This document shows, in pieces, positions 11,570 through 24,131 of a DNA stretch of 64,000 nucleotides. The DNA is taken from contig JBHLQH010000001.1 of assembly GCA_048884965.1 (NCBI GenBank), positions 1 to 64,000 of the forward strand, in the 5' to 3' direction. Made by a program: the position numbers and the translations under genes. Position 1 is the stretch's first letter. Each line of letters starts with the position of its first letter. This stretch comes from Candidatus Thorarchaeota archaeon (GTDB taxonomy: Archaea > Asgardarchaeota > Thorarchaeia > Thorarchaeales > Thorarchaeaceae). A model generated the notes under the pieces. The model worked only from the letters and a program-made list of their open reading frames with translations, searched no databases and was not told the origin of the DNA.

Positions 11570-12931
11570 TCATTCCTTTCTTGTGCAGGTTTGCTCCCAG
11601 ACAGCTATCAACTGCATAAGATGCTCATCTTTTGGAGCTATCCGACGAGCTTGTTGGATTGCCTCCTGAGCTTCGTTACACCTACCTGTGATAGTTAGGA
11701 AGAGTCCAAGGTTAGTCCAAGATTTTACATCGTGAGGTCCATAATGAGCGGCTTTTCTTAATGCAGGCTCAGCTTCTGTATTTCTTCCCAATTGAATACA
11801 AGTGACTCCGAGATCTGACCAAGCTCGATAGTGTAATGGATCGCATTCTACTGTCTTCTTTAAAGCCGAAAGAGTTTCCTCGAGGCGCTTATTCTGATCA
11901 TAATAGCATGCTAATTGGTACCAGGCATTTGTGTAATCTGGCATCAACTCGATGACCTGTTTCAGGGCCTGTTCGCCTTCCTCACCTTTTCCTTGACCTA
12001 GAAGAGATTTACCCAGATTCATCCATGCAATGTGATTGTTCTTATCCAAATCAAGGACCTTTCGTAGAGCTTCTTCTGCGTTTTCGTATTCTCCTTCATT
12101 GACCAGAACTGCACCTAGATTTACTCTTGCACCAATATGTTCAGGTGAGAGAGCAAGCACCTTTTCATACACTTTCCTTTCTTCAGCATATTTGTTCTGG
12201 ACTGAATATATCAAACCAAGACTATACCAGATATCAGCATCATTTGGATTGATTTCGGAAGCCATCTGATAGCATCTTTCTGCATTGCTTACATCCCCTA
12301 TTCTTTGGTAGATATTTCCCACCTTGGCTAATAACTCCGCATTCGTGCCATCAATTTCAATTATTTTCTCACACGCTTCAGATACACTGTTCACTTTACG
12401 AAGATTATATCTTAGTACAGCAAGTTGGTACCATGCTGAAACAATCGCTTCCTTTGGAAACAAGTTTTCATCAGAGAGTTTCTCAAGTGACATTTGTAGG
12501 ATATTCTCAGCTTCTTGAAATTCGTTTTTTTCTTGGAGAGATGAGCAAAGGTTCAATGCTGCGATGATATTTTCTGGATTATACTGAACTGCTTTTCGAT
12601 ACGCTTCCTCTGCAGCCCCGTCCATTCCAGATAGTCGAATATACAGATTCCCTAAGTTTGACCAAATGAATGAGCTATCTTCTATATGTTCGAGAGCCTG
12701 CTTTGCTAGTGCTATAGCTTGTAGTGTTTCTCCGAAATCCTGATGTATTGCGATCAGATTTAGCCATGCCGCATCGAATTCAGGGTATATCTCAAGAGCT
12801 TTCTCATACATAGCTTTTGCTTCTAATTTCTGACCACTCATTTCATACTTGAGAGCATCCTCAAACAATGCCCATGCTTCAGGTGGTGTGTTCTCCTTTG
12901 CTGATTTTGTCAGTGAGTTACTTGGATTCAT
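11570..12931 (-). CDS. Tetratricopeptide repeat protein (about 11-12 TPRs)
   Basis: Repeated 34-aa W.NLG..Y...G...EA...Y.KA....P pattern throughout. Confidence 0.9.
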   Translation of the reverse strand: MNPSNSLTKSAKENTPPEAWALFEDALKYEMSGQKLEAKAMYEKALEIYPEFDAAWLNLIAIHQDFGETLQAIALAKQALEHIEDSSFIWSNLGNLYIRLSGMDGAAEEAYRKAVQYNPENIIAALNLCSSLQEKNEFQEAENILQMSLEKLSDENLFPKEAIVSAWYQLAVLRYNLRKVNSVSEACEKIIEIDGTNAELLAKVGNIYQRIGDVSNAERCYQMASEINPNDADIWYSLGLIYSVQNKYAEERKVYEKVLALSPEHIGARVNLGAVLVNEGEYENAEEALRKVLDLDKNNHIAWMNLGKSLLGQGKGEEGEQALKQVIELMPDYTNAWYQLACYYDQNKRLEETLSALKKTVECDPLHYRAWSDLGVTCIQLGRNTEAEPALRKAAHYGPHDVKSWTNLGLFLTITGRCNEAQEAIQQARRIAPKDEHLMQLIAVWEQTCTRKE

Positions 12932-13274
12932 CACTCATCCCCCCAAATCGAAAATGTCCTCCTTGAGGTGCTTGTTCAAGTGACCAAACATTACCATACG
13001 GATCTGATTGAGTATAAGTTCCACATAAAACACAGTAGAATATATCGTATGATAATGGTTCAAGTGTCAAACTCCTTGAGTACTGAATAGGTTTTGCGCC
13101 GCATTTTGCACATGAATCTGCCAGGATGCTTATCTCTCCCTCTGGAGCCGATGCTCTGAAATTCGAGTAGCAATCAAGACAAGAAATCAAATTATAGTAG
13201 TGCACATAGGCTTTCCATTGAACGTTCTTCTTACCGCATGTTGGACATGTTGGATCAAAATAATCATATTTCAT
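12918..13274 (-). CDS. Double zinc-ribbon protein
   Basis: Four CxxC motifs (CPTC, CLDC, CAKC, CVLC); overlaps the start of the TPR gene. Confidence 0.7.
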   Translation of the reverse strand: MKYDYFDPTCPTCGKKNVQWKAYVHYYNLISCLDCYSNFRASAPEGEISILADSCAKCGAKPIQYSRSLTLEPLSYDIFYCVLCGTYTQSDPYGNVWSLEQAPQGGHFRFGGMSDESK

Positions 13275-13467: not shown

Positions 13468-15147
13468 GTGAAGCAAAACCAGTTTCATATCATGCTAATC
13501 ATATTCCTATTAGGAACAACCGCAATTCCAATATGGGGCTGCTTTCAGATGCAGTCAAGCGGGTTTATTCCTCTGGATACGGTCAGTAATAATTTGAGAT
13601 TATACTTCCCATCCGATGTTTTCATATCAACTGCAACACTGTGGAACGAAACATTTGCAGGCGAAGGTATGAATGAGGTATGGGATCTTGTTGAAACTCC
13701 GAGTGGGACCTTGTTTGCTGCAGGTTCGACTGAATATGAGTTTGGGGGAGGAGATTATGGGCTTCAGATCTATTGGCTCAGTCAAACCCTTGACGCATCT
13801 TTAAAGACGCAGTCACATACAGGAAGTAATGGTACTGAGGCTGCGTACTCTGTTGCGAGGACATCTGATGGACTCTACCATATGGTAGGTCTTGCAGAGA
13901 CTTGGTATCCAACCTCAGCAGGTGGTACAGATGTATATCTGCAATCAGTAGGCTCTGCGCTATACTCTCCAGACTCCTATTATGGAGGACCTGAGAATGA
14001 TGTCGGATGGTCGATTACTGCAGTGAATGGTGAAGACCTAGCTATCGGAGGATCTACTGAAAGTTTCGGACATGGTATGAAGGATGTATGGTTTCTCTTT
14101 ATTGAATCAGAGAATATTCATACCGGCGAAGAGCTAGGTGCAAAGACACCTCTCTCATGGAATCGGACATACGGCGGTCCAGATGACGACGAAGCCTTCT
14201 CGGTTATTTCCTGCAGTGGTGGTGGATTTGCACTGGCTGGATACACCGAAAGTAATGGTAATGGAAACAAGGATGGATGGTTGCTACGGATCAATCAGGA
14301 TGGAGATCAGCTTTGGAATGTAACTCTTGGCGGAGCCAGTGACGATGTCTTCTACTCTCTGATTGAATGTTCTGAAGGTGGTTTTGCTCTAGTTGGGACG
14401 ACCCTAAGTCTGGGTTCTGGTGCCGAGGATCTCTGGATGGTACGCACTGATGCCACAGGACAGCTACTTTGGCAGCAGACATTTGGAGGGAGCGCTTCAG
14501 ACTTTGGGCGGGATATAATTGAAGCATCTGACGGTCGCTATGCCATGGCAGGTTACACAAAGAGCTCAGGTGCAGGGAATTTTGATGCTTGGTTTCTCTT
14601 GACGGATATCAATGGAACACTAATTCATGAACGCACTCATGGTGGTTCCGCGGCAGATGGAGTTTATGCTGTTATTGAGTCCGATTTCGGAGGGTTTGCA
14701 ATCGCAGGATATACTGAGAGCTATGCTGCAGACAATCGGGACGCGTGGCTGATTCGAATCCCTGAACTATCTCCTCCGGAATGGAGTGAACCACTCACAG
14801 ATCAAACAGGATTCTCTCATGCAAACTTCAGCTATGATTTGAATGTCAGCGATTCATCTGCAATTGCCTCATGGTCGCTGAATGACACATCCATTTTCAG
14901 TATAGATCGCAATGGTATCATCACGAATGCTGTTGACCTCCTTGCTGGTGTCTACGGAATTGAGGTGTCTGTGAGTGATGAATTCGGTAATACCTTGATA
15001 GGAATGCTAACTATCACGATTGTGGATGATCTAACTCATCTCATATTAGGGATTGCAGGTGTGGGAATCGCATCAATCCTAGTTCTCTCGCTCTTCGTCT
15101 GTGTAAGAAAGTCAAAGCTATCTTCACCCTCTTCAAGTAGCATGTAG
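13468..15147 (+). CDS. Cell-surface protein: beta-propeller repeats, cadherin-like domain and C-terminal TM anchor
   Basis: Signal peptide; about 7-8 W.xTYGG..DD....I...DGGF.LAGYT repeats; PPEW..YDLNVSD..FSID.NGII..YGIEVSVSD cadherin-like unit; TM helix plus RKSK. Confidence 0.8.
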   Translation: MKQNQFHIMLIIFLLGTTAIPIWGCFQMQSSGFIPLDTVSNNLRLYFPSDVFISTATLWNETFAGEGMNEVWDLVETPSGTLFAAGSTEYEFGGGDYGLQIYWLSQTLDASLKTQSHTGSNGTEAAYSVARTSDGLYHMVGLAETWYPTSAGGTDVYLQSVGSALYSPDSYYGGPENDVGWSITAVNGEDLAIGGSTESFGHGMKDVWFLFIESENIHTGEELGAKTPLSWNRTYGGPDDDEAFSVISCSGGGFALAGYTESNGNGNKDGWLLRINQDGDQLWNVTLGGASDDVFYSLIECSEGGFALVGTTLSLGSGAEDLWMVRTDATGQLLWQQTFGGSASDFGRDIIEASDGRYAMAGYTKSSGAGNFDAWFLLTDINGTLIHERTHGGSAADGVYAVIESDFGGFAIAGYTESYAADNRDAWLIRIPELSPPEWSEPLTDQTGFSHANFSYDLNVSDSSAIASWSLNDTSIFSIDRNGIITNAVDLLAGVYGIEVSVSDEFGNTLIGMLTITIVDDLTHLILGIAGVGIASILVLSLFVCVRKSKLSSPSSSSM

Positions 15148-15195: not shown

Positions 15196-18100
15196 CTATG
15201 AGCCTGTATCATCTACATGTTCATGTGCATCATGAGTGATTTCTTCTCCCTCTTCGTTAACATCAAGATCTGTCTTCTTGGTCATCCCAGGAATGCTCCT
15301 AACGATTCTCGAAGACGCGAATGGAATCAATACCAAGAATACAACAGGAAGCAAGATGATGGCTGCCATAGAGTAATTCTTGAGGAAATCAAGTTGCATG
15401 ATGGTTGTGGCTCCGAGGATTAGCAAGAACATCAAGAACTTAATCCGAATCGATGATCCAGTTCTTCCCACAAGTAGAGCTTGTTCCTCATCGACGATAT
15501 GTTTCGGTGTGCCTGCAACTTTCATATCCTCGATTCTACGCAGTCCTTTCCGAATCTCGCGATAGAAGCTGACGACGACTACAACAATGCTACTCATATA
15601 GGTGACTAGCACTGTCGCAAGCAATGGCGCAATCATTATCTCACCAACGACAATCTGCGGTACAAAGTAGATGTATCGGTCAAACATCTGTACGGAAGCT
15701 CCATAGGTGAATATGAGGAACACAATGAATGGTACGAGAAGGAGATGCCAAACACCAAGGGCAATCCTACGCTTGCTCAGCTGTCCTTGAAGCAGGATAG
15801 AAGAGTATGCATCCCGATAGAGCCAAAGCCCGTACAGAAGCACTGACGCTCCTAGCAGGATGATACTTTCGATAACTGCAAGTCCAAAGTTTCCTTCTGA
15901 GGATATTAACCAAGAGTGCAGGAACAGCAGTCCCGAGGAAGCAATGATAACCGCATAGATCTTGTCCAATTGGTTAATGCTCCTAGTGACTTCTTCGATC
16001 TTTCTTGGGGATGTTGTCACAACTGAGGATACTTTGACAAATAATATCATGCCAATAAGGCTCAGGAGAAGTGCGAATCCTGCGGCCATTGATACTTGTT
16101 CTATGCTCAATGAGTCCATGCCCGGAATGAACACCTCTACGAAGATTTCTTTCCAGCTACTTCCTGGTCCAGAAAGACTTCCGCTTATGGTGACTGATAT
16201 ATTGTAGTATCCATAGGGTGTATTCCCGATATCGAATGCGATAGAATAAGTACCTGGTATTTCTGTTTCTTCTGCGACACCACTCATTTCTGCAAAATCA
16301 ACCAATACCATTAGGTCTATCACAGGAATCTCGTATTGATCAGAAACATCGATCATGATTACCAACGTTGAGAACTGGACCGGCTCCAGAGATGACGGCT
16401 TGATTTCGATAATGGGGTCAGCTATTACAGTCAAATTGCTGCTCCACTGACCTTGATGCAGAAACTCATGTTCGACGGTGACAGTGTAAGGATGAACTCC
16501 ATATGGCCAGCCCATGGTTGAGATTTCAGTCTGATACAGCCCTTCACTGATGTGCTCAAGAGCATAGGATGTCCCTCGTATTCGCAAAGAAACAGTTGCA
16601 TCTACTATATCTGTGCCCAGCCAATCCTCCACGTGAATTTCTATAGTAGTAGTGTTTCCCTGTCCAACGCTCCAACCATCTGGCGGATCCACCATGAACA
16701 TCGCATCGGACAGAACACGTAAATCATAGATGCCCTTGCCAGCATAGCTGAATCCTGAACCGTAGTAGACGGTGAAATTCCATGTCCCGACTTTATAGGT
16801 CGCGTTTAGTGTTGCCGCAAATCTCCCAATCGAGAGTTGAGTTGCAGTCACATTCCTACCATCTATCTCTAGAATAACCCATGTATCACTAGGTGCTGTG
16901 CCATGTACATCGCTGATGAATACTACAACCACGAAATCTTCACCCCCTTCTACAGGAGGTATGTCTGGAACCTCAAGGATAAGATCTCCCCAGGTGGCAA
17001 TCTGGATTTCTCCAAAATCTGTTCCTTGCAGATAATCTTGCTCTACAAATATCTCGAATGTGTGGTTCCCTGTCCTGAATGTTGCACTCGAATTCAAGTA
17101 ATAGCATCCTGGAGCCAATTCACTAAGAGTCAACTCATAGCTTCCACTTACCATCATCACATACGCGTTCTCTAGGGGATTGCCAAACATGTCGGTTATG
17201 TTCAACCAGCCCCTGAGCGCTTCATCTTGTTCTATCATTGTGGGTATATCTTGATTGATTTGGAGCTCACCTGTTTCTATCCTAAAGACTGTTGCAGCAG
17301 AGGATTCAGCTGCGGCAAATGGATGGCTGGCTGTCGCATTCACCGAATATTGTCCGGGAATCAGATTCACATTCGGAATGATTAATCGGTATTGTGGATC
17401 CAGATAGGTAGTAAGGTAGGAATCTCCATCTAGTAAAACAGTAACAGACGCATCAGGAACCCTTGATCCTAGACTATCAGTTACGGTGATGTCTGCAGAA
17501 AATGTATTATTTTGCAATACAACTTCTCTAGTATAGACTATCACATCTAATTCGCTTCTCACCGTTAGTGCATTTGGATAGTATGCTTCCCATTGATCGT
17601 AAAGGTCATGGTCCACTCTCAGACTGAAGTTGACAATGCCCATGGGCCAGTTCGCAGCGACAGCTGTAGAGTAGTTGGAGGTCCCATAGATTAGTGCCTT
17701 CGTTTGATTGATGATCGAACTCCCTGATTGAAAGTGTATTGTGAGATAGACCTCAGCATCGCTGATCACCTCGGAATAGATATTGGTGACATCCACGAAT
17801 AATGGCAATGAATCTCCTTGTTGAAGGTCATCAGGATTGTAAGAAAGAGAAGCATTCAAGCGTCGAATCAGCACGATATCTCGTATCACTCCAATCTTAG
17901 TCACTCCATTTTGCACCAGTGGGTAGACCACAATCTCTTCTCCGTAGCCGAGATCGATGTTACTCAATCGCATGGAACCGTAGCCTTGACCTACGACCAT
18001 TGTGCGTTCAACAATGCCATCTAGTGATACGATGGTCAGTTTTTCATCCTGCTTTGTGAAGACTCCAACTTCATCTTCACCATCACCATCGAAGTCTACA

Positions 18101-20721
18101 ACTACTGAGCTGAGGAAATCTGCTGTGCTGATGGGGGCGTCCCACTCTATCACAACAGGAGCATCCAACCTGAACAGCGTAAGATCTCCAGTTAGATAAT
18201 CGATTCCATATGCTTCATCGGTTCCATCGTTTTCTACATCAATCAAATCCAGATAGAAATAGAGATGATTCGGATTCGTTATCAGTGTCGTTTCATTTAT
18301 TCTAGGAGTATTCGCATCGAACATATGGAATCCACAGGAGAATCCAATTGGATCCACTAAGAACAGATACACCATGAATTTGACTCGTGGTTCTGAGGCA
18401 TTATGATAGGAGTACATGCCTGCAGGAATCGTCATCAAGTGGTCGGCGCTAGTGACATTATGCGTCGAGATTCTACTCATGCTTGTCGCATTTATGATAT
18501 CTACAGGTCCAGTACTGATTGACACACATGCTTCTACAGACTGATCGTTAATCGTACTTGCTAGACTCAATCCATAATATTCAGCATGACCTCCAGACAG
18601 TTTCGTTTCAGTCCATGAGCCATCCATTCGCATTCGCAAGAGGAATCCATCATGTGTAGTGCTATTCTCAGCAACAAGGAACACCTCGTCTATATCATCA
18701 TTATCACAATCATAGGTTTGAGCGGATTGTGGGCTTCTGAAATCCAGATGTGGATACTGACTTGAGAACCAAGGCGTCCCAGATGACCCATGATAGATTG
18801 ACACATTGATTTTTCCTATAGAAGCATTATAGAGAATAACAACTGGATCCAGGATATTATCTCCATCCATCATTCCTGTATAGAGCCAGAAGTCGCTGAA
18901 AGTTCCATTCGCAACTATTGCTAGCGATTGATTCTCTCCCCGAGGAGAATATCGTTCCAAGCGCACTTCATCGATATCCGAATCAAGGATATAGATCACC
19001 TCGCTACCATCTGATGTATTTCCAATATCCATCAAGTGATGCTCAAGGGCTGTAGCTTGATTCTTCGTTTCTGACCATGCGATATGACCTGCAACTGTGA
19101 AATTAACAGGATGTGTTTCATTGCCCAAGGTACCAATGTTTAGGTATGTATCTTGGAATAGTAAATAGTACTCATAGAATCCTTCTGGCAATCCAACAAG
19201 GAATGCAAAGTATTGAGTTCCAGCGTTTTGAAGTTCGTCTGGTTGACTCCAATTCCCAAATTCATATCGCATATAGATCTCTGCCAAGATGATTGCCGTA
19301 TCATCTTCTATTCCTACTTCGATCTCAATGTAGGGGTCTCGAAGAGTTGGATGTGGAGGTGATAGAGGTTCAGGGATAATGATAGGTGCTTGGACATCGC
19401 TGAGCAAGATATAGACAAACTGGCCCTCTATTACAGCGATATCATCTCTTCCATTATTGTTGATATCATATATTCGGATCTGACCTGGTTTACTTGATAT
19501 TGTTGGGTCCTCATAGCCTATGGAACCATCTACTCCACGGAGAAAGCCTACATTGCCGTCTACGGCGGTAAGGATTGCAAAATCCGTGAGATTATCAGCA
19601 TCGATATATCCATAGTCCAAGATCGGGCTTGGAGGGTCTCCAACTATTGGTCCTTGCGGGGCTCCTTGGATTTCTACCGTGTAGCGAATAATTGAACCAT
19701 TGGTCCCATCAATGTACACAGATCGATTTGGTACTGTTGGAGCAACTATGAGATCCTCTTGAGTATCATGATTGAGGAATCCCCTGGTGACAACGCTTCG
19801 ACTGGGGAGTCCATTAGTGGTGTAAATTGTACTCATTGTAGAGGGTGTAATTGTTGTCAGATTGCCATCAAAGATCATGACTGCAACATCGTCAAGTCCT
19901 GAACCAAACTGGAATCTTGCCAATCCATTGATTTGATCGTGAAAGATTATGCTATCAATCAGAGAACCATTTCCAGCAATCATACTCATGTTCGCTATCT
20001 TCGAGCCTGGCCAGACACCTAATGCAATCGAATCTTGAGAGGGTTCCAGAAAACGACCGATTGCATAACCAGAGATACTATCTCCAACTTCTAGGGAGTA
20101 ATTACCTAGGAGTTGATCCGTTTGGATGTCTAACATTATGACTCCATAGCGGACAAATATCGCCACATCTAGATTCGAGTCATCATTGAAGGTGCCCGTA
20201 GCGATTCCAGTTGGATCGTTTATTGAAACGTTGTATGAGGTGGTATATCCGTCATTAAAGTCAACCAGCAGCAAATTAAATGCAGTTCCATTGTCGTTCA
20301 ATATCAGGAACTCGGTGCTACCATCATCGTCCATATCAGCTCCAGTAATGGTCTTCTCTTGGAGAGTTCCTGACTCAACAGATTGGTTCAATGTTACATC
20401 ATTTATGGGGTCTACAAATCTCAAGTAATCGGCATTGTCATCCGAATATGCAAATCCCCTATAGCTACTCACATTGCCCATCGCTATATAATCCGACTGA
20501 GCAGTAAGCTGAACTGTAAGACGTGTATCATCTGCCGCAATCAATGCTGTGTGCCCTGGATCAATAGATGCAGAGTCTGCATAGGTGCAGGATACATCAC
20601 CGGACATGATAGGGAAAATCACGAAGGCAACCAAGAAACCTATGAGTATGCACTTGATTGAATCAAGTTCATAGTTCCTCAACTGACGTGCTTGAATTCT
20701 AGACGCAGCATCTCTAACCAT
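15196..20721 (-). CDS. Giant surface protein: two FG-GAP/VCBS beta-propellers, about 7 Ig-like domains, C-terminal seven-TM domain
   Basis: DxDxDG blade loops (DMDDDG, DINNNG, DFDGDG and others), six V.D..G..V.DA.V Ig-like repeats, seven hydrophobic helices in the last ~300 aa; ATG 20721 after GGAG (ORF track starts at 20826). Confidence 0.8.
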   Translation of the reverse strand: MVRDAASRIQARQLRNYELDSIKCILIGFLVAFVIFPIMSGDVSCTYADSASIDPGHTALIAADDTRLTVQLTAQSDYIAMGNVSSYRGFAYSDDNADYLRFVDPINDVTLNQSVESGTLQEKTITGADMDDDGSTEFLILNDNGTAFNLLLVDFNDGYTTSYNVSINDPTGIATGTFNDDSNLDVAIFVRYGVIMLDIQTDQLLGNYSLEVGDSISGYAIGRFLEPSQDSIALGVWPGSKIANMSMIAGNGSLIDSIIFHDQINGLARFQFGSGLDDVAVMIFDGNLTTITPSTMSTIYTTNGLPSRSVVTRGFLNHDTQEDLIVAPTVPNRSVYIDGTNGSIIRYTVEIQGAPQGPIVGDPPSPILDYGYIDADNLTDFAILTAVDGNVGFLRGVDGSIGYEDPTISSKPGQIRIYDINNNGRDDIAVIEGQFVYILLSDVQAPIIIPEPLSPPHPTLRDPYIEIEVGIEDDTAIILAEIYMRYEFGNWSQPDELQNAGTQYFAFLVGLPEGFYEYYLLFQDTYLNIGTLGNETHPVNFTVAGHIAWSETKNQATALEHHLMDIGNTSDGSEVIYILDSDIDEVRLERYSPRGENQSLAIVANGTFSDFWLYTGMMDGDNILDPVVILYNASIGKINVSIYHGSSGTPWFSSQYPHLDFRSPQSAQTYDCDNDDIDEVFLVAENSTTHDGFLLRMRMDGSWTETKLSGGHAEYYGLSLASTINDQSVEACVSISTGPVDIINATSMSRISTHNVTSADHLMTIPAGMYSYHNASEPRVKFMVYLFLVDPIGFSCGFHMFDANTPRINETTLITNPNHLYFYLDLIDVENDGTDEAYGIDYLTGDLTLFRLDAPVVIEWDAPISTADFLSSVVVDFDGDGEDEVGVFTKQDEKLTIVSLDGIVERTMVVGQGYGSMRLSNIDLGYGEEIVVYPLVQNGVTKIGVIRDIVLIRRLNASLSYNPDDLQQGDSLPLFVDVTNIYSEVISDAEVYLTIHFQSGSSIINQTKALIYGTSNYSTAVAANWPMGIVNFSLRVDHDLYDQWEAYYPNALTVRSELDVIVYTREVVLQNNTFSADITVTDSLGSRVPDASVTVLLDGDSYLTTYLDPQYRLIIPNVNLIPGQYSVNATASHPFAAAESSAATVFRIETGELQINQDIPTMIEQDEALRGWLNITDMFGNPLENAYVMMVSGSYELTLSELAPGCYYLNSSATFRTGNHTFEIFVEQDYLQGTDFGEIQIATWGDLILEVPDIPPVEGGEDFVVVVFISDVHGTAPSDTWVILEIDGRNVTATQLSIGRFAATLNATYKVGTWNFTVYYGSGFSYAGKGIYDLRVLSDAMFMVDPPDGWSVGQGNTTTIEIHVEDWLGTDIVDATVSLRIRGTSYALEHISEGLYQTEISTMGWPYGVHPYTVTVEHEFLHQGQWSSNLTVIADPIIEIKPSSLEPVQFSTLVIMIDVSDQYEIPVIDLMVLVDFAEMSGVAEETEIPGTYSIAFDIGNTPYGYYNISVTISGSLSGPGSSWKEIFVEVFIPGMDSLSIEQVSMAAGFALLLSLIGMILFVKVSSVVTTSPRKIEEVTRSINQLDKIYAVIIASSGLLFLHSWLISSEGNFGLAVIESIILLGASVLLYGLWLYRDAYSSILLQGQLSKRRIALGVWHLLLVPFIVFLIFTYGASVQMFDRYIYFVPQIVVGEIMIAPLLATVLVTYMSSIVVVVVSFYREIRKGLRRIEDMKVAGTPKHIVDEEQALLVGRTGSSIRIKFLMFLLILGATTIMQLDFLKNYSMAAIILLPVVFLVLIPFASSRIVRSIPGMTKKTDLDVNEEGEEITHDAHEHVDDTGS

Positions 20722-20812
20722 TGCTACTCCATCCCTTGCGAATACATTCTGTAGTAGCAAATGGGGCATTTTTATGTTTCCGAAGCCATTATAGATTAAC
20801 ACTAGAAAGTCT

Positions 20813-21481
20813 TCATTCGTTTTCATGATAGGTGTAAGTTTTTCGTAATTCCTGCGACCCGAGATGAGCTTGACGAAGAGGCTCTGGGATTCTATGTTGT
20901 GAGACCTTTCCTACAATATCAATGGCTGTTTTCAATGAGATCCCGTGTCCTATTGATACATAGACTGGTCTTTTTCCTTTGGTGGACCAAAATGCTACTC
21001 CAAGCTGTTCAGAATCGTTGATTATAGGAGCAACATTGTCTTTCCGCACACCTACTATTCCGAGCATCAACTTCTTAGCTACTCCAATAGTTGGGATATT
21101 CATTTTCACTCCTACATAAGAGGCGAGACCCATTCGTCTAGGATGCAGGATGCCGTTCCCATCAATCAAGACCGGTCCTTGATGCTTAAGTTCCTTCAGA
21201 ATCTCTATGATCAATGGAGCCTCTCGAAGATAGAAGAATCCTGACCGATATGGGACATCGCAAATAGATTTCCTTTTCTCAATTTCAACAATCTCCATTG
21301 ATTCACCATCTTGGACGACTGCACATGCAAATGCATTGGTATCTTGATAGGCAACATCAACTCCTATGATATACTTGCTACCAACCATGGGACTATCTAT
21401 GTTTGAAACCTGTTTCGCCAGCTTCAGTTGCTCTTCCTCTGCGCCTTGGAACGTATGCTCAGTTCCCATCATATCCTTCAT
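20813..21481 (-). CDS. nfi: Endonuclease V
   Basis: IGVDVAY, PYRSGFFYLREAP, LIDGNGILHPRRMGLAS, PTIGVAK, PVYVSIGH, RIPEPLRQAH. Confidence 0.93.
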   Translation of the reverse strand: MKDMMGTEHTFQGAEEEQLKLAKQVSNIDSPMVGSKYIIGVDVAYQDTNAFACAVVQDGESMEIVEIEKRKSICDVPYRSGFFYLREAPLIIEILKELKHQGPVLIDGNGILHPRRMGLASYVGVKMNIPTIGVAKKLMLGIVGVRKDNVAPIINDSEQLGVAFWSTKGKRPVYVSIGHGISLKTAIDIVGKVSQHRIPEPLRQAHLGSQELRKTYTYHENE

Positions 21482-21546: not shown

Positions 21547-22827
21547 TTGTTGCAGGGATTCACTGATCTGATGGGCGCTGCATCTGCTGGACATATCGAG
21601 AATGTACGACGCCTTCTTGCATTAGGTGAGGATGTCAACGCTCGAGCAGGAAATGGACGAACCCCGCTTATGTATGCAGCGACTACAGGAAGATCGGAAG
21701 AGGTGGTAGCAGCTCTATTAGATGCTGGAGCTGACATCGATGCACAGGACGTAGAAGGCTGGACTGCTCTTATGGGTGCTATCAGCTTTGACTTGGACGC
21801 CATTGCACGTCTTCTCATCATCCGGGGGACGAATGTCAATCTTGCGACAAAAAGAGGTCAGGTAGCACTTCAGCTCGCTTCCGCGATGGGTAACTCTGAG
21901 ATGGCTCGCTTTCTGATTGCATCTGGAGCGGATGTAGGTGCTGAACGTGTCGATGGCTTCACCGTACTTATGGCTGCAGCTCAAGGCAACCAACTGAAAT
22001 TGGTGCAAGAGCTTGTAGAGGTTCATGGGCTCGACTCTCATCAGAAAGATGACCATCAATGGGATGCATTATCCTATGCACTTGAGTATGGTGATCTTGA
22101 TTTGATAGAATACCTTCTCAAAGCGGGTTGCGACCCCACCACAATCGATGGAGATGGATTATCGCCTCTCATGAGGATGTCGAAAAGCGGTAAGGTAAGG
22201 AATGCTGAGGTACTTATCGAGTATGGGGCAGATGTAGATCAACGGACCTATGACAACATGACCTCCTTACTCTTCGCCATTGATGAGGGTAAGACTGAGG
22301 TAGTTGATTTACTTATCACGCAAAATGCGAACTTGGATCTTTCACGTTCAGATGGTCTAACTCCCCTCATGTTTGCAACTGCAACAGAAAATCCTACGGC
22401 CGCTCAGCACCTCATGGAAGCGGGTGCGAATATACATCTTTCAGACGAAGATGGATGGAACGCATTATTATCTGCGGCATCATGGGGTCTATCATCTGTT
22501 GTCGACATGCTGCTGACGCAGGGTGCTGATATCAAATCAACAAGGAAGGATGGATATACGCTTCTGATGGCCGCAGCAGTAGGAGGTCTCACAGATATTG
22601 TAAAGATGTGTCTCGACAAAGGAATTGAGATCAATGCGGTAGATGGTGAGAATCTTACTGCACTCATCTATGCTGCTGAGAACGGACACCTCGAAATATG
22701 TGAGATTCTTTTGGAGTCAGGTGCTGATGTTTCCATCTGCGATACAGATGGACGTAATGCCAAGGATTGCGCTAAGGACTTCAATCATACGCAGATAATT
22801 GAGCTTCTTGACAAGTATCTTGAGTGA
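21547..22827 (+). CDS. Ankyrin repeat protein (about 12-13 repeats)
   Basis: Repeated G.TPLM.AA..G...V..LL..GAD.N 33-aa units. Confidence 0.95.
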   Translation: MLQGFTDLMGAASAGHIENVRRLLALGEDVNARAGNGRTPLMYAATTGRSEEVVAALLDAGADIDAQDVEGWTALMGAISFDLDAIARLLIIRGTNVNLATKRGQVALQLASAMGNSEMARFLIASGADVGAERVDGFTVLMAAAQGNQLKLVQELVEVHGLDSHQKDDHQWDALSYALEYGDLDLIEYLLKAGCDPTTIDGDGLSPLMRMSKSGKVRNAEVLIEYGADVDQRTYDNMTSLLFAIDEGKTEVVDLLITQNANLDLSRSDGLTPLMFATATENPTAAQHLMEAGANIHLSDEDGWNALLSAASWGLSSVVDMLLTQGADIKSTRKDGYTLLMAAAVGGLTDIVKMCLDKGIEINAVDGENLTALIYAAENGHLEICEILLESGADVSICDTDGRNAKDCAKDFNHTQIIELLDKYLE

Positions 22828-23483: not shown

Positions 23484-24131
23484 TTAGGCATCCACGACGA
23501 CTCCTCCCTTTTTGAGATCAGCGAAATATACTTCCGCAGAAGAGATTGGAATCTGAAGCTCCTTCTCGAAGAGTTGAACCAGCTGTTCTCTTGAAAAGGA
23601 ACTGCCCTGTTCATGTCTTTGGATCAGAAGAATGAGCCGTATCTGTCTAGCGTTGGCGGCATGCTGCATCGCGCCTTCTACCAATCGATAACCCGAGGTT
23701 GGAGCAAAGAGGTTCTCAGTAAGTTGATCGAGTGCCCACTCTTGATCAAAGAAGGTCCTATCTCCATGCCAGTTTCGAATTAGGAACTTGTATTCCTCCT
23801 CAAATAGAGCGAGGAATTTCAGGAATCTATTGAGAATCTCTGGATTGACTGTAGAAGATGTCACAACTATTCCTGCGAGGTACTCTCCATGGCATACATT
23901 AGCCGTGTATCTCTCTATCTGAAATTGCTCCTGTAGCACTCTATCCGTCGAAGTTGAGCTGAATTTCTGCTGCATTGATGTAGCGGTAATTAATGCACTG
24001 AAGAGGTCTGGGTCAATCTTCTCATTGACAAACGAGTGATGGAATATTGAGAGTCCACTCTCAAGCAAGGACACAATGACATGCTGTATCTCTTTTTGTT
24101 TCTGTTTGTCTTTGCCTATCTTACCTTTCAT
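23484..24131 (-). CDS. Longin-like domain protein with C-terminal winged helix (putative eukaryotic signature protein)
   Basis: HVIVS..SGLSIFHHSF...IDPDLFSALITA...FLALFEEEY...NWHGD longin-type pattern; C-terminal FSREQL..IPISSAEVYFADLKKGGVV. Confidence 0.65.
   Translation of the reverse strand: MKGKIGKDKQKQKEIQHVIVSLLESGLSIFHHSFVNEKIDPDLFSALITATSMQQKFSSTSTDRVLQEQFQIERYTANVCHGEYLAGIVVTSSTVNPEILNRFLKFLALFEEEYKFLIRNWHGDRTFFDQEWALDQLTENLFAPTSGYRLVEGAMQHAANARQIRLILLIQRHEQGSSFSREQLVQLFEKELQIPISSAEVYFADLKKGGVVVDA

Follow-up and report, generated by a model that had tools for sequence, protein, structure and literature searches.

G protein-coupled receptors (GPCRs) of the adhesion type (class B2) carry a big modular adhesive ectodomain on a bundle of seven helices whose N-terminus lies outside and whose C-terminus lies inside the cell (N-out/C-in). 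Helices 5 and 6 of the bundle extend into the cytoplasm, and no enzyme is fused to it. Integrin alpha chains place a calcium-loop propeller ahead of Ig-like legs. Each of these features is shared by the product of a gene from a Candidatus Thorarchaeota archaeon (assembly GCA_048884965.1), which lies at 15196..20721 on the minus strand of the window, the 64,000 nucleotides of contig JBHLQH010000001.1 analysed here. It is an archaeal case of a layout like that of adhesion receptors, with no evidence of descent from GPCRs. Membership of the GPCRs, the adhesion GPCRs, the integrins, the rhodopsins or the SWEETs is not borne out by the sequence features tested. Its seven-helix module belongs to no named family, and no description of the family was found in the literature searched. 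A recent survey of structures refers to 7TM clusters in Asgard archaea, but in too little detail to identify the present family (10.64898/2026.10.28.762692).

A conserved, receptor-like multi-pass module is supported: it is kept across classes, its ectodomain is swappable, its cytoplasmic hairpin has a fixed length and one clade adds a zinc ribbon. We give about an even chance to the proposal that the protein is a cell-surface contact or adhesion receptor of an Asgard-specific family, in which the bundle passes engagement on, by way of the hairpin, to a partner in the cytoplasm.

The seven-helix module and its family

An earlier note on this DNA had read the C-terminus as seven transmembrane (TM) helices, N-out/C-in, with a cytoplasmic loop of about 40 residues between TM5 and TM6, and both statements hold. 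Seven C-terminal hydropathy peaks are present, and an AlphaFold2 (AF2) model built from a 63-sequence alignment contains seven long helices (mean pLDDT 79, pTM 0.72). The orientation follows from the basic residues found after TM1, TM3, TM5 and TM7 in 133 relatives. TM5 and TM6 are modelled as 37-residue helices that extend into the cytoplasm with a short turn between them, and a short outer helix and a beta-hairpin separate TM4 from TM5. The TM5-TM6 loop measures 42 +/- 0.7 residues family-wide, whereas the TM1-TM2 loop varies freely from 18 to 107; the hairpin geometry is thus constrained, though its sequence varies by clade.

By three profile searches, the module occurs in about 93 of the 400 Asgard genomes and in 15 of the 33 families, and an exhaustive search gave 138 clusters at 50% identity. 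Named members or their neighbours are labelled Thorarchaeota, Lokiarchaeota/Promethearchaeota, Sigynarchaeum, Asgardarchaeum, Njordarchaeia and Heimdallarchaeota, which by source labels amounts to five or more Asgard classes. The labels are at times in error, as for three near-identical-family genomes (L146-L148) labelled Hodarchaeota, Promethearchaeota and Hermodarchaeota, and the restriction to Asgard archaea rests on all named matches being Asgard-labelled. A prokaryote-wide genome scan with one protein returned only three close relatives. Close homologues of the present protein are labelled Thorarchaeota. The module is present in 57 of 85 genomes of the host family, in 13-14 of the 135 that make up the largest Loki family and in none of several other families; its identity across classes is 15-45%. 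Because a quick maximum-likelihood tree of the module broadly follows host groups, with paralogue clades and expansions, the sequences suggest old vertical descent with frequent loss.

In complete genes the module always forms the C-terminus of a protein of 1,400-3,000 residues and has seven helices; short matches appear to be fragments. An apparent ArsR-HTH fusion to a family member (L084:6213-10649) spans a run of N and is probably an assembly artefact. Module profiles match only two proteins strongly in the host genome. The genome has a second copy, a 2967-residue paralogue on contig C6 that is 45% identical in the module. Two tandem TFIIB-like paralogues lie upstream of this second copy (L001:15999-18023).

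Above the constant module the ectodomain is exchanged, with FG-GAP and invasin-Ig domains in some members and BNR/Asp-box propellers in those of the Loki clade that were scanned. The earlier note had proposed looking for the module on other ectodomains, and it is indeed found under BNR propellers in Lokiarchaeia-type members. Below the membrane, 15 of 17 Loki-clade rows carry a C-terminal cytoplasmic double zinc ribbon. One Thorarchaeia clade (P0136, P0048, P0139, P0147 and P0166) has an acidic linker followed by a small conserved helical unit at the C-terminus (pattern TKxELI..LP / ELKKLSK..LEAL), to which no Pfam family matched.

The module is about 290 residues long (residues are numbered so that M36 is the start at 20721; all features lie on the minus strand). 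A hinge proline, P1568 (16123..16125), is present in 100% of 108 non-redundant sequences and precedes TM1, which runs from out to in (16027..16104). TM2 (15898..15972), like TM1, was placed by hydropathy and AF2, and TM3 (15811..15888) ends in an RD motif whose D is retained in 73% of the family. TM4 (15700..15768; hydropathy, AF2 and conservation) ends at the conserved G1709 and leads into the outer TM4-TM5 loop (15628..15699), an amphipathic helix and beta-hairpin recognised from AF2 and conservation. This loop has W in 86% and P in 92% of the family; in the present copy M replaces the W and the P is one position off. TM5 (15559..15627) is rich in Ser and Thr, with S1746 in 86% of members, and the modelled cytoplasmic hairpin that extends TM5 and TM6 occupies 15451..15558. 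TM6 (15391..15450) holds K1796 (90%) and F1800 (98%), and TM7 (15301..15372) holds P1827 (99%). The tail and stop codon (15196..15300) form a basic, then acidic, disordered segment, with the double zinc ribbon in its place in Lokiarchaeia-type members. Near-invariant positions family-wide are P1568, G1709, W1714, P1733, S1746, K1796, F1800 and P1827.

No membrane-embedded charged residue is conserved family-wide. We consider it improbable that the protein is a subunit of a gated channel or transporter, with propellers that capture substrate. A homodimer co-fold of the module scored 0.19, an internal repeat test gave a weak likeness of TM3 to TM5 (18-36%), and covariation over 241 sequences (about 144 effective) amounted to noise, with many predicted pairs spanning the membrane.

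Tests of kinship with GPCRs, rhodopsins and Oxa1 insertases

Seven helices, N-out/C-in, are also the arrangement of SWEET/PQ-loop proteins, the KDEL receptor and microbial rhodopsins. The earlier note's description of a GPCR topology thus stands as to helix number and orientation, but that topology is not specific to GPCRs. Neither the query nor the family consensus has a Lys in TM7, the residue that binds retinal in microbial rhodopsins, and the 3+1+3 repeat of SWEET/PQ-loop proteins was not recovered when TM1-3 were compared with TM5-7 (HHalign 5% over 15 columns).

A true remote GPCR homologue, in effect a proto-adhesion GPCR, would account for the seven helices, the outer N-terminus and the aromatic-R-D motif that closes TM3. 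The top PDB match of a TM5-TM7 profile is TM5-ICL3-TM6 (ICL3, third intracellular loop) of the beta1-adrenergic receptor, in register at E 0.03, and two of the 108 members match 7tm_1, the better at E 0.003. Yet the beta1-adrenergic match, to an entry that we take to be an engineered, loop-shortened construct, ties with a helix bundle designed de novo (E 0.036) and spans one helix pair, while a nociceptin-receptor match is out of register. GPCR rows listed by Foldseek align poorly (CXCR3, TM-score 0.17 and root-mean-square deviation 21; a herpesvirus GPCR, 0.28 and 11). Structural matches to the module, from the model of pTM 0.72, are generic three- and four-helix bundles that barely cover TM1 and TM7. 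Class motifs are absent or rare in the modules (CWxP 0/133, NPxxY 2/133, DRY-like 12/133), and with 0.65 Cys per module there is no disulfide between TM3 and the second extracellular loop (ECL2). The GPS motif occurs in 0 of 173 proteins and GAIN is absent, the Ig repeat leading straight into the proline hinge, just as the earlier note had reported. GPCR homology is the least probable of the explanations considered here, and the best reading is that the protein is analogous, not homologous, to adhesion GPCRs. This is what the note had suspected, and it fits the motif, disulfide and GAIN/GPS results.

Members of the Oxa1 superfamily have, in order, an outer amphipathic helix, a TM helix, a cytoplasmic helical hairpin and a further TM helix (PMC8675477, Table 1). 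If the module were a derivative of this superfamily (DUF106/TMCO1/EMC3/GET1-like), its TM5-hairpin-TM6-TM7 part would represent the diverged core of an insertase, chaperone or scramblase, fused beneath a double propeller like that of EMC1 from the EMC (ER membrane protein complex) to form a single-chain EMC-like machine. Element order and topology do match the module's TM4-TM5 loop, TM5, hairpin and TM6. Asgard DUF106 profiles align TM5-hairpin-TM6 in one register (HHalign 52% and 54% for two non-overlapping sets), with 70% for the Loki clade, 16% for the rest and 2-4% for reversed profiles, and DUF106 sequences are enriched over a background of about 780 membrane proteins. Against this, the host genome's own DUF106 ranks 119th of 778, and hmmsearch either misses it or places it 93rd; PF01956 is not one of the 25 best-ranking families for the segment. 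The module has no h4h5 element, with a TM6-TM7 loop of 9 residues against about 35 in DUF106, and the WY motif of Oxa1 TM3 is not found in TM7. TM2-4 share the topology of Asgard EMC6, but their profile score is at background. Standard DUF106 proteins occur in every host group tested (59 of 61 genomes), whereas the module family is patchy, and any TM helix with a basic helical hairpin may score alike. We regard an Oxa1 origin as unlikely, if less so than GPCR descent. Pfam matches to DUF2178 and DUF2207_C were below cut-off.

Separately, three genomes of family f10 (G053, G055 and G056; L089:1474-2937 and L108) encode DUF106/EMC3-TMCO1 (Oxa1) homologues in frames of 485-495 residues, apparently fused to a signal peptide and an N-terminal ectodomain of about 280 residues; a normal short copy lies elsewhere in the genome.

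Ectodomain, gene boundaries and neighbours

The minus-strand stretch 15196..20826 is one intact open reading frame of 1876 residues counted from its first ATG. Judged from the sequence, M36 at 20721, the start used in the earlier note, is the likely one, which gives 1841 residues; it is favoured by the starts of homologues and an upstream GGAG, and a later start is further supported because an endonuclease V gene (20813-21481) overlaps the beginning of the long frame. Counts of sigma-70-type promoters and terminators are at chance level, and a search for RNA runs listed none.

The ectodomain begins with the signal peptide recognised in the earlier note (20602..20721, residues 36-75), which has a basic n-region and a hydrophobic core with its hydropathy peak at residues 56-75. 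Two propellers follow, as the note had also said, but both are of the 8-bladed VCBS/FG-GAP type with calcium loops, not of the 7-bladed integrin type. Propeller 1 (19396..20529, residues ~100-477), with VCBS/FG-GAP calcium loops of the DxDxDG type, and propeller 2 (17872..19086, residues ~581-985) each have about 32 strands, or 8 blades, in the model, and 8-bladed structures rank first among the matches. One Ig-like unit separates them (19087..19395, residues ~478-580), and six Ig-like repeats of about 95 residues form the stalk (16126..17856, residues 991-1567), a count of one plus six that repeat alignment confirms. The stalk is assigned to the invasin/Big_1 type from Big_1 and Invasin_D3 matches in homologues, the structure model covering its first unit only; in paralogues it is 2-3 times longer.

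The convergent neighbour (13468-15147, plus strand) encodes a surface protein that has just one anchor helix, together with a signal peptide, a set of Gly-rich propeller-like repeats and an Ig-like unit, and has no Pfam match. Genes for a TPR protein (11570-12934), the endonuclease V and an ankyrin-repeat protein (21547-22827) are also nearby; these three are kept beside relatives only as far as the same genus.

Two candidate partners were rejected. Longin-like proteins lie within 3 kb of both paralogues of the host genome, yet occur at 5 of 49 loci against a background of about 5%; the proteins concerned, longin-like and winged-helix-like (23484-24131, minus strand, and L001:4638-5684), are among 39 such proteins in the genome. 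The other, protein X (L064:915-2570, G000 C6; L002-L028), is a zinc-ribbon membrane protein of about 520-550 residues with no Pfam family. It comprises a signal peptide, a beta-rich ectodomain, a TM helix, an amphipathic helix, a CxxC..CxxC ribbon, a winged-helix-like part, two TM helices and an acidic tail. Protein X stands tail-to-tail with one Thorarchaeia paralogue clade at 27 of 27 loci, but not with the present copy. It occurs in 84 of 85 host-family genomes, including ones that lack the seven-helix module, has a second, shorter paralogue and is hardly found outside the host family. Because it is adjacent in one clade only and occurs without the module, we attribute the association to synteny. 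In two related Lokiarchaeia-type genomes (L043:1-487, L047:12363-13022), a small, apparently profilin/roadblock-like protein without a Pfam match is encoded two genes downstream of the seven-helix giant.

Proposed function and comparison with known systems

In the proposed contact or adhesion receptor, the propellers would attach in a calcium-dependent manner to the glycans or proteins of particles, of matrix or of partner cells, by analogy with the related 8-bladed propeller of Vibrio Bap1, and stalk length would set the reach. Load on the stalk, or binding, may pass via the hinge and TM1 to the bundle, with the conserved outer helix and hairpin possibly seating the stalk. The TM5-TM6 hairpin, together with the zinc-ribbon tail in Lokiarchaeia, could then be the docking surface for a cytoskeletal or small-GTPase-linked partner encoded elsewhere.

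An exchanged ectodomain and variable stalk over a constant module form the pattern of receptor families, and the contrast between a fixed TM5-TM6 and a free TM1-TM2 loop points the same way. Lokiarchaeia in culture also have a single membrane that bears numerous complex surface proteins, and cultured Asgard cells have many unidentified surface structures (PMC9834061). Several observations weigh against a receptor. The family is patchy (present in 17 of 90 high-quality genomes) and missing in several near-complete genomes, and is therefore accessory. No fused enzymatic output domain was found, nor any partner gene conserved beside the family loci. The earlier note had looked to the cytoplasmic loops for conservation; it is present within Thorarchaeia, where the cytoplasmic face is highly conserved, and in the length of TM5-TM6. 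Loop sequences are unlike between the Thor and Loki clades, and the residues conserved most strongly family-wide have mostly structural roles or lie on the outer side (the Pro of the hinge; G, W and P in the loop between TM4 and TM5).

One rival reading is an adhesin or tether that does not signal, in which the bundle is a strong anchor or cytoskeleton link for a long adhesive stalk and there is no regulated output. We think this doubtful: a single anchor helix suffices for the convergent neighbour and other surface proteins, and an anchor would hardly need a module of 290 residues whose loop lengths are fixed, whose identity across classes is 15-45% and which has a zinc-ribbon tail throughout one clade. 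Comparably doubtful is a broader proposal, that the module is an ancient Asgard signalling or insertase-derived unit, reaching up to Heimdallarchaeia, with a traceable eukaryotic link, either as an Oxa1/EMC-type core under EMC1-like propellers or as a pre-GPCR adhesion receptor. If true, this would add a new candidate to the eukaryotic signatures, one for the sensing of cell contact, and models of eukaryogenesis give contact between cells a central place. The family comprises multi-pass receptor-like surface proteins with a compact membrane unit amenable to expression and structure determination. Its TM5-TM6 hairpin and its zinc-ribbon tail offer two clear surfaces for tests.

Compared with known systems, the module differs from adhesion GPCRs in having no GAIN/GPS, GPCR motifs or disulfide and in its poor alignment to the listed GPCR rows. 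Integrin alpha has a 7-bladed propeller, a single TM helix and a GFFKR tail, in place of the 8 blades and seven helices seen here. Asgard 7TM-longin fusions and prokaryotic 7TMR-DISM/HD receptors likewise have seven helices, occur in the same genomes and are receptor-like, but in them an output domain (longin, kinase or cyclase) is fused on. The Oxa1 superfamily and EMC share element order and topology, and EMC1 has two lumenal propellers; the module's hairpin is shorter and the similarity borderline only. Bap1 is a secreted matrix protein, and from it and other VCBS/FG-GAP 8-bladed propeller proteins (FAM234-type propellers) the present protein is set apart by its two propellers, Ig stalk and seven-helix base.
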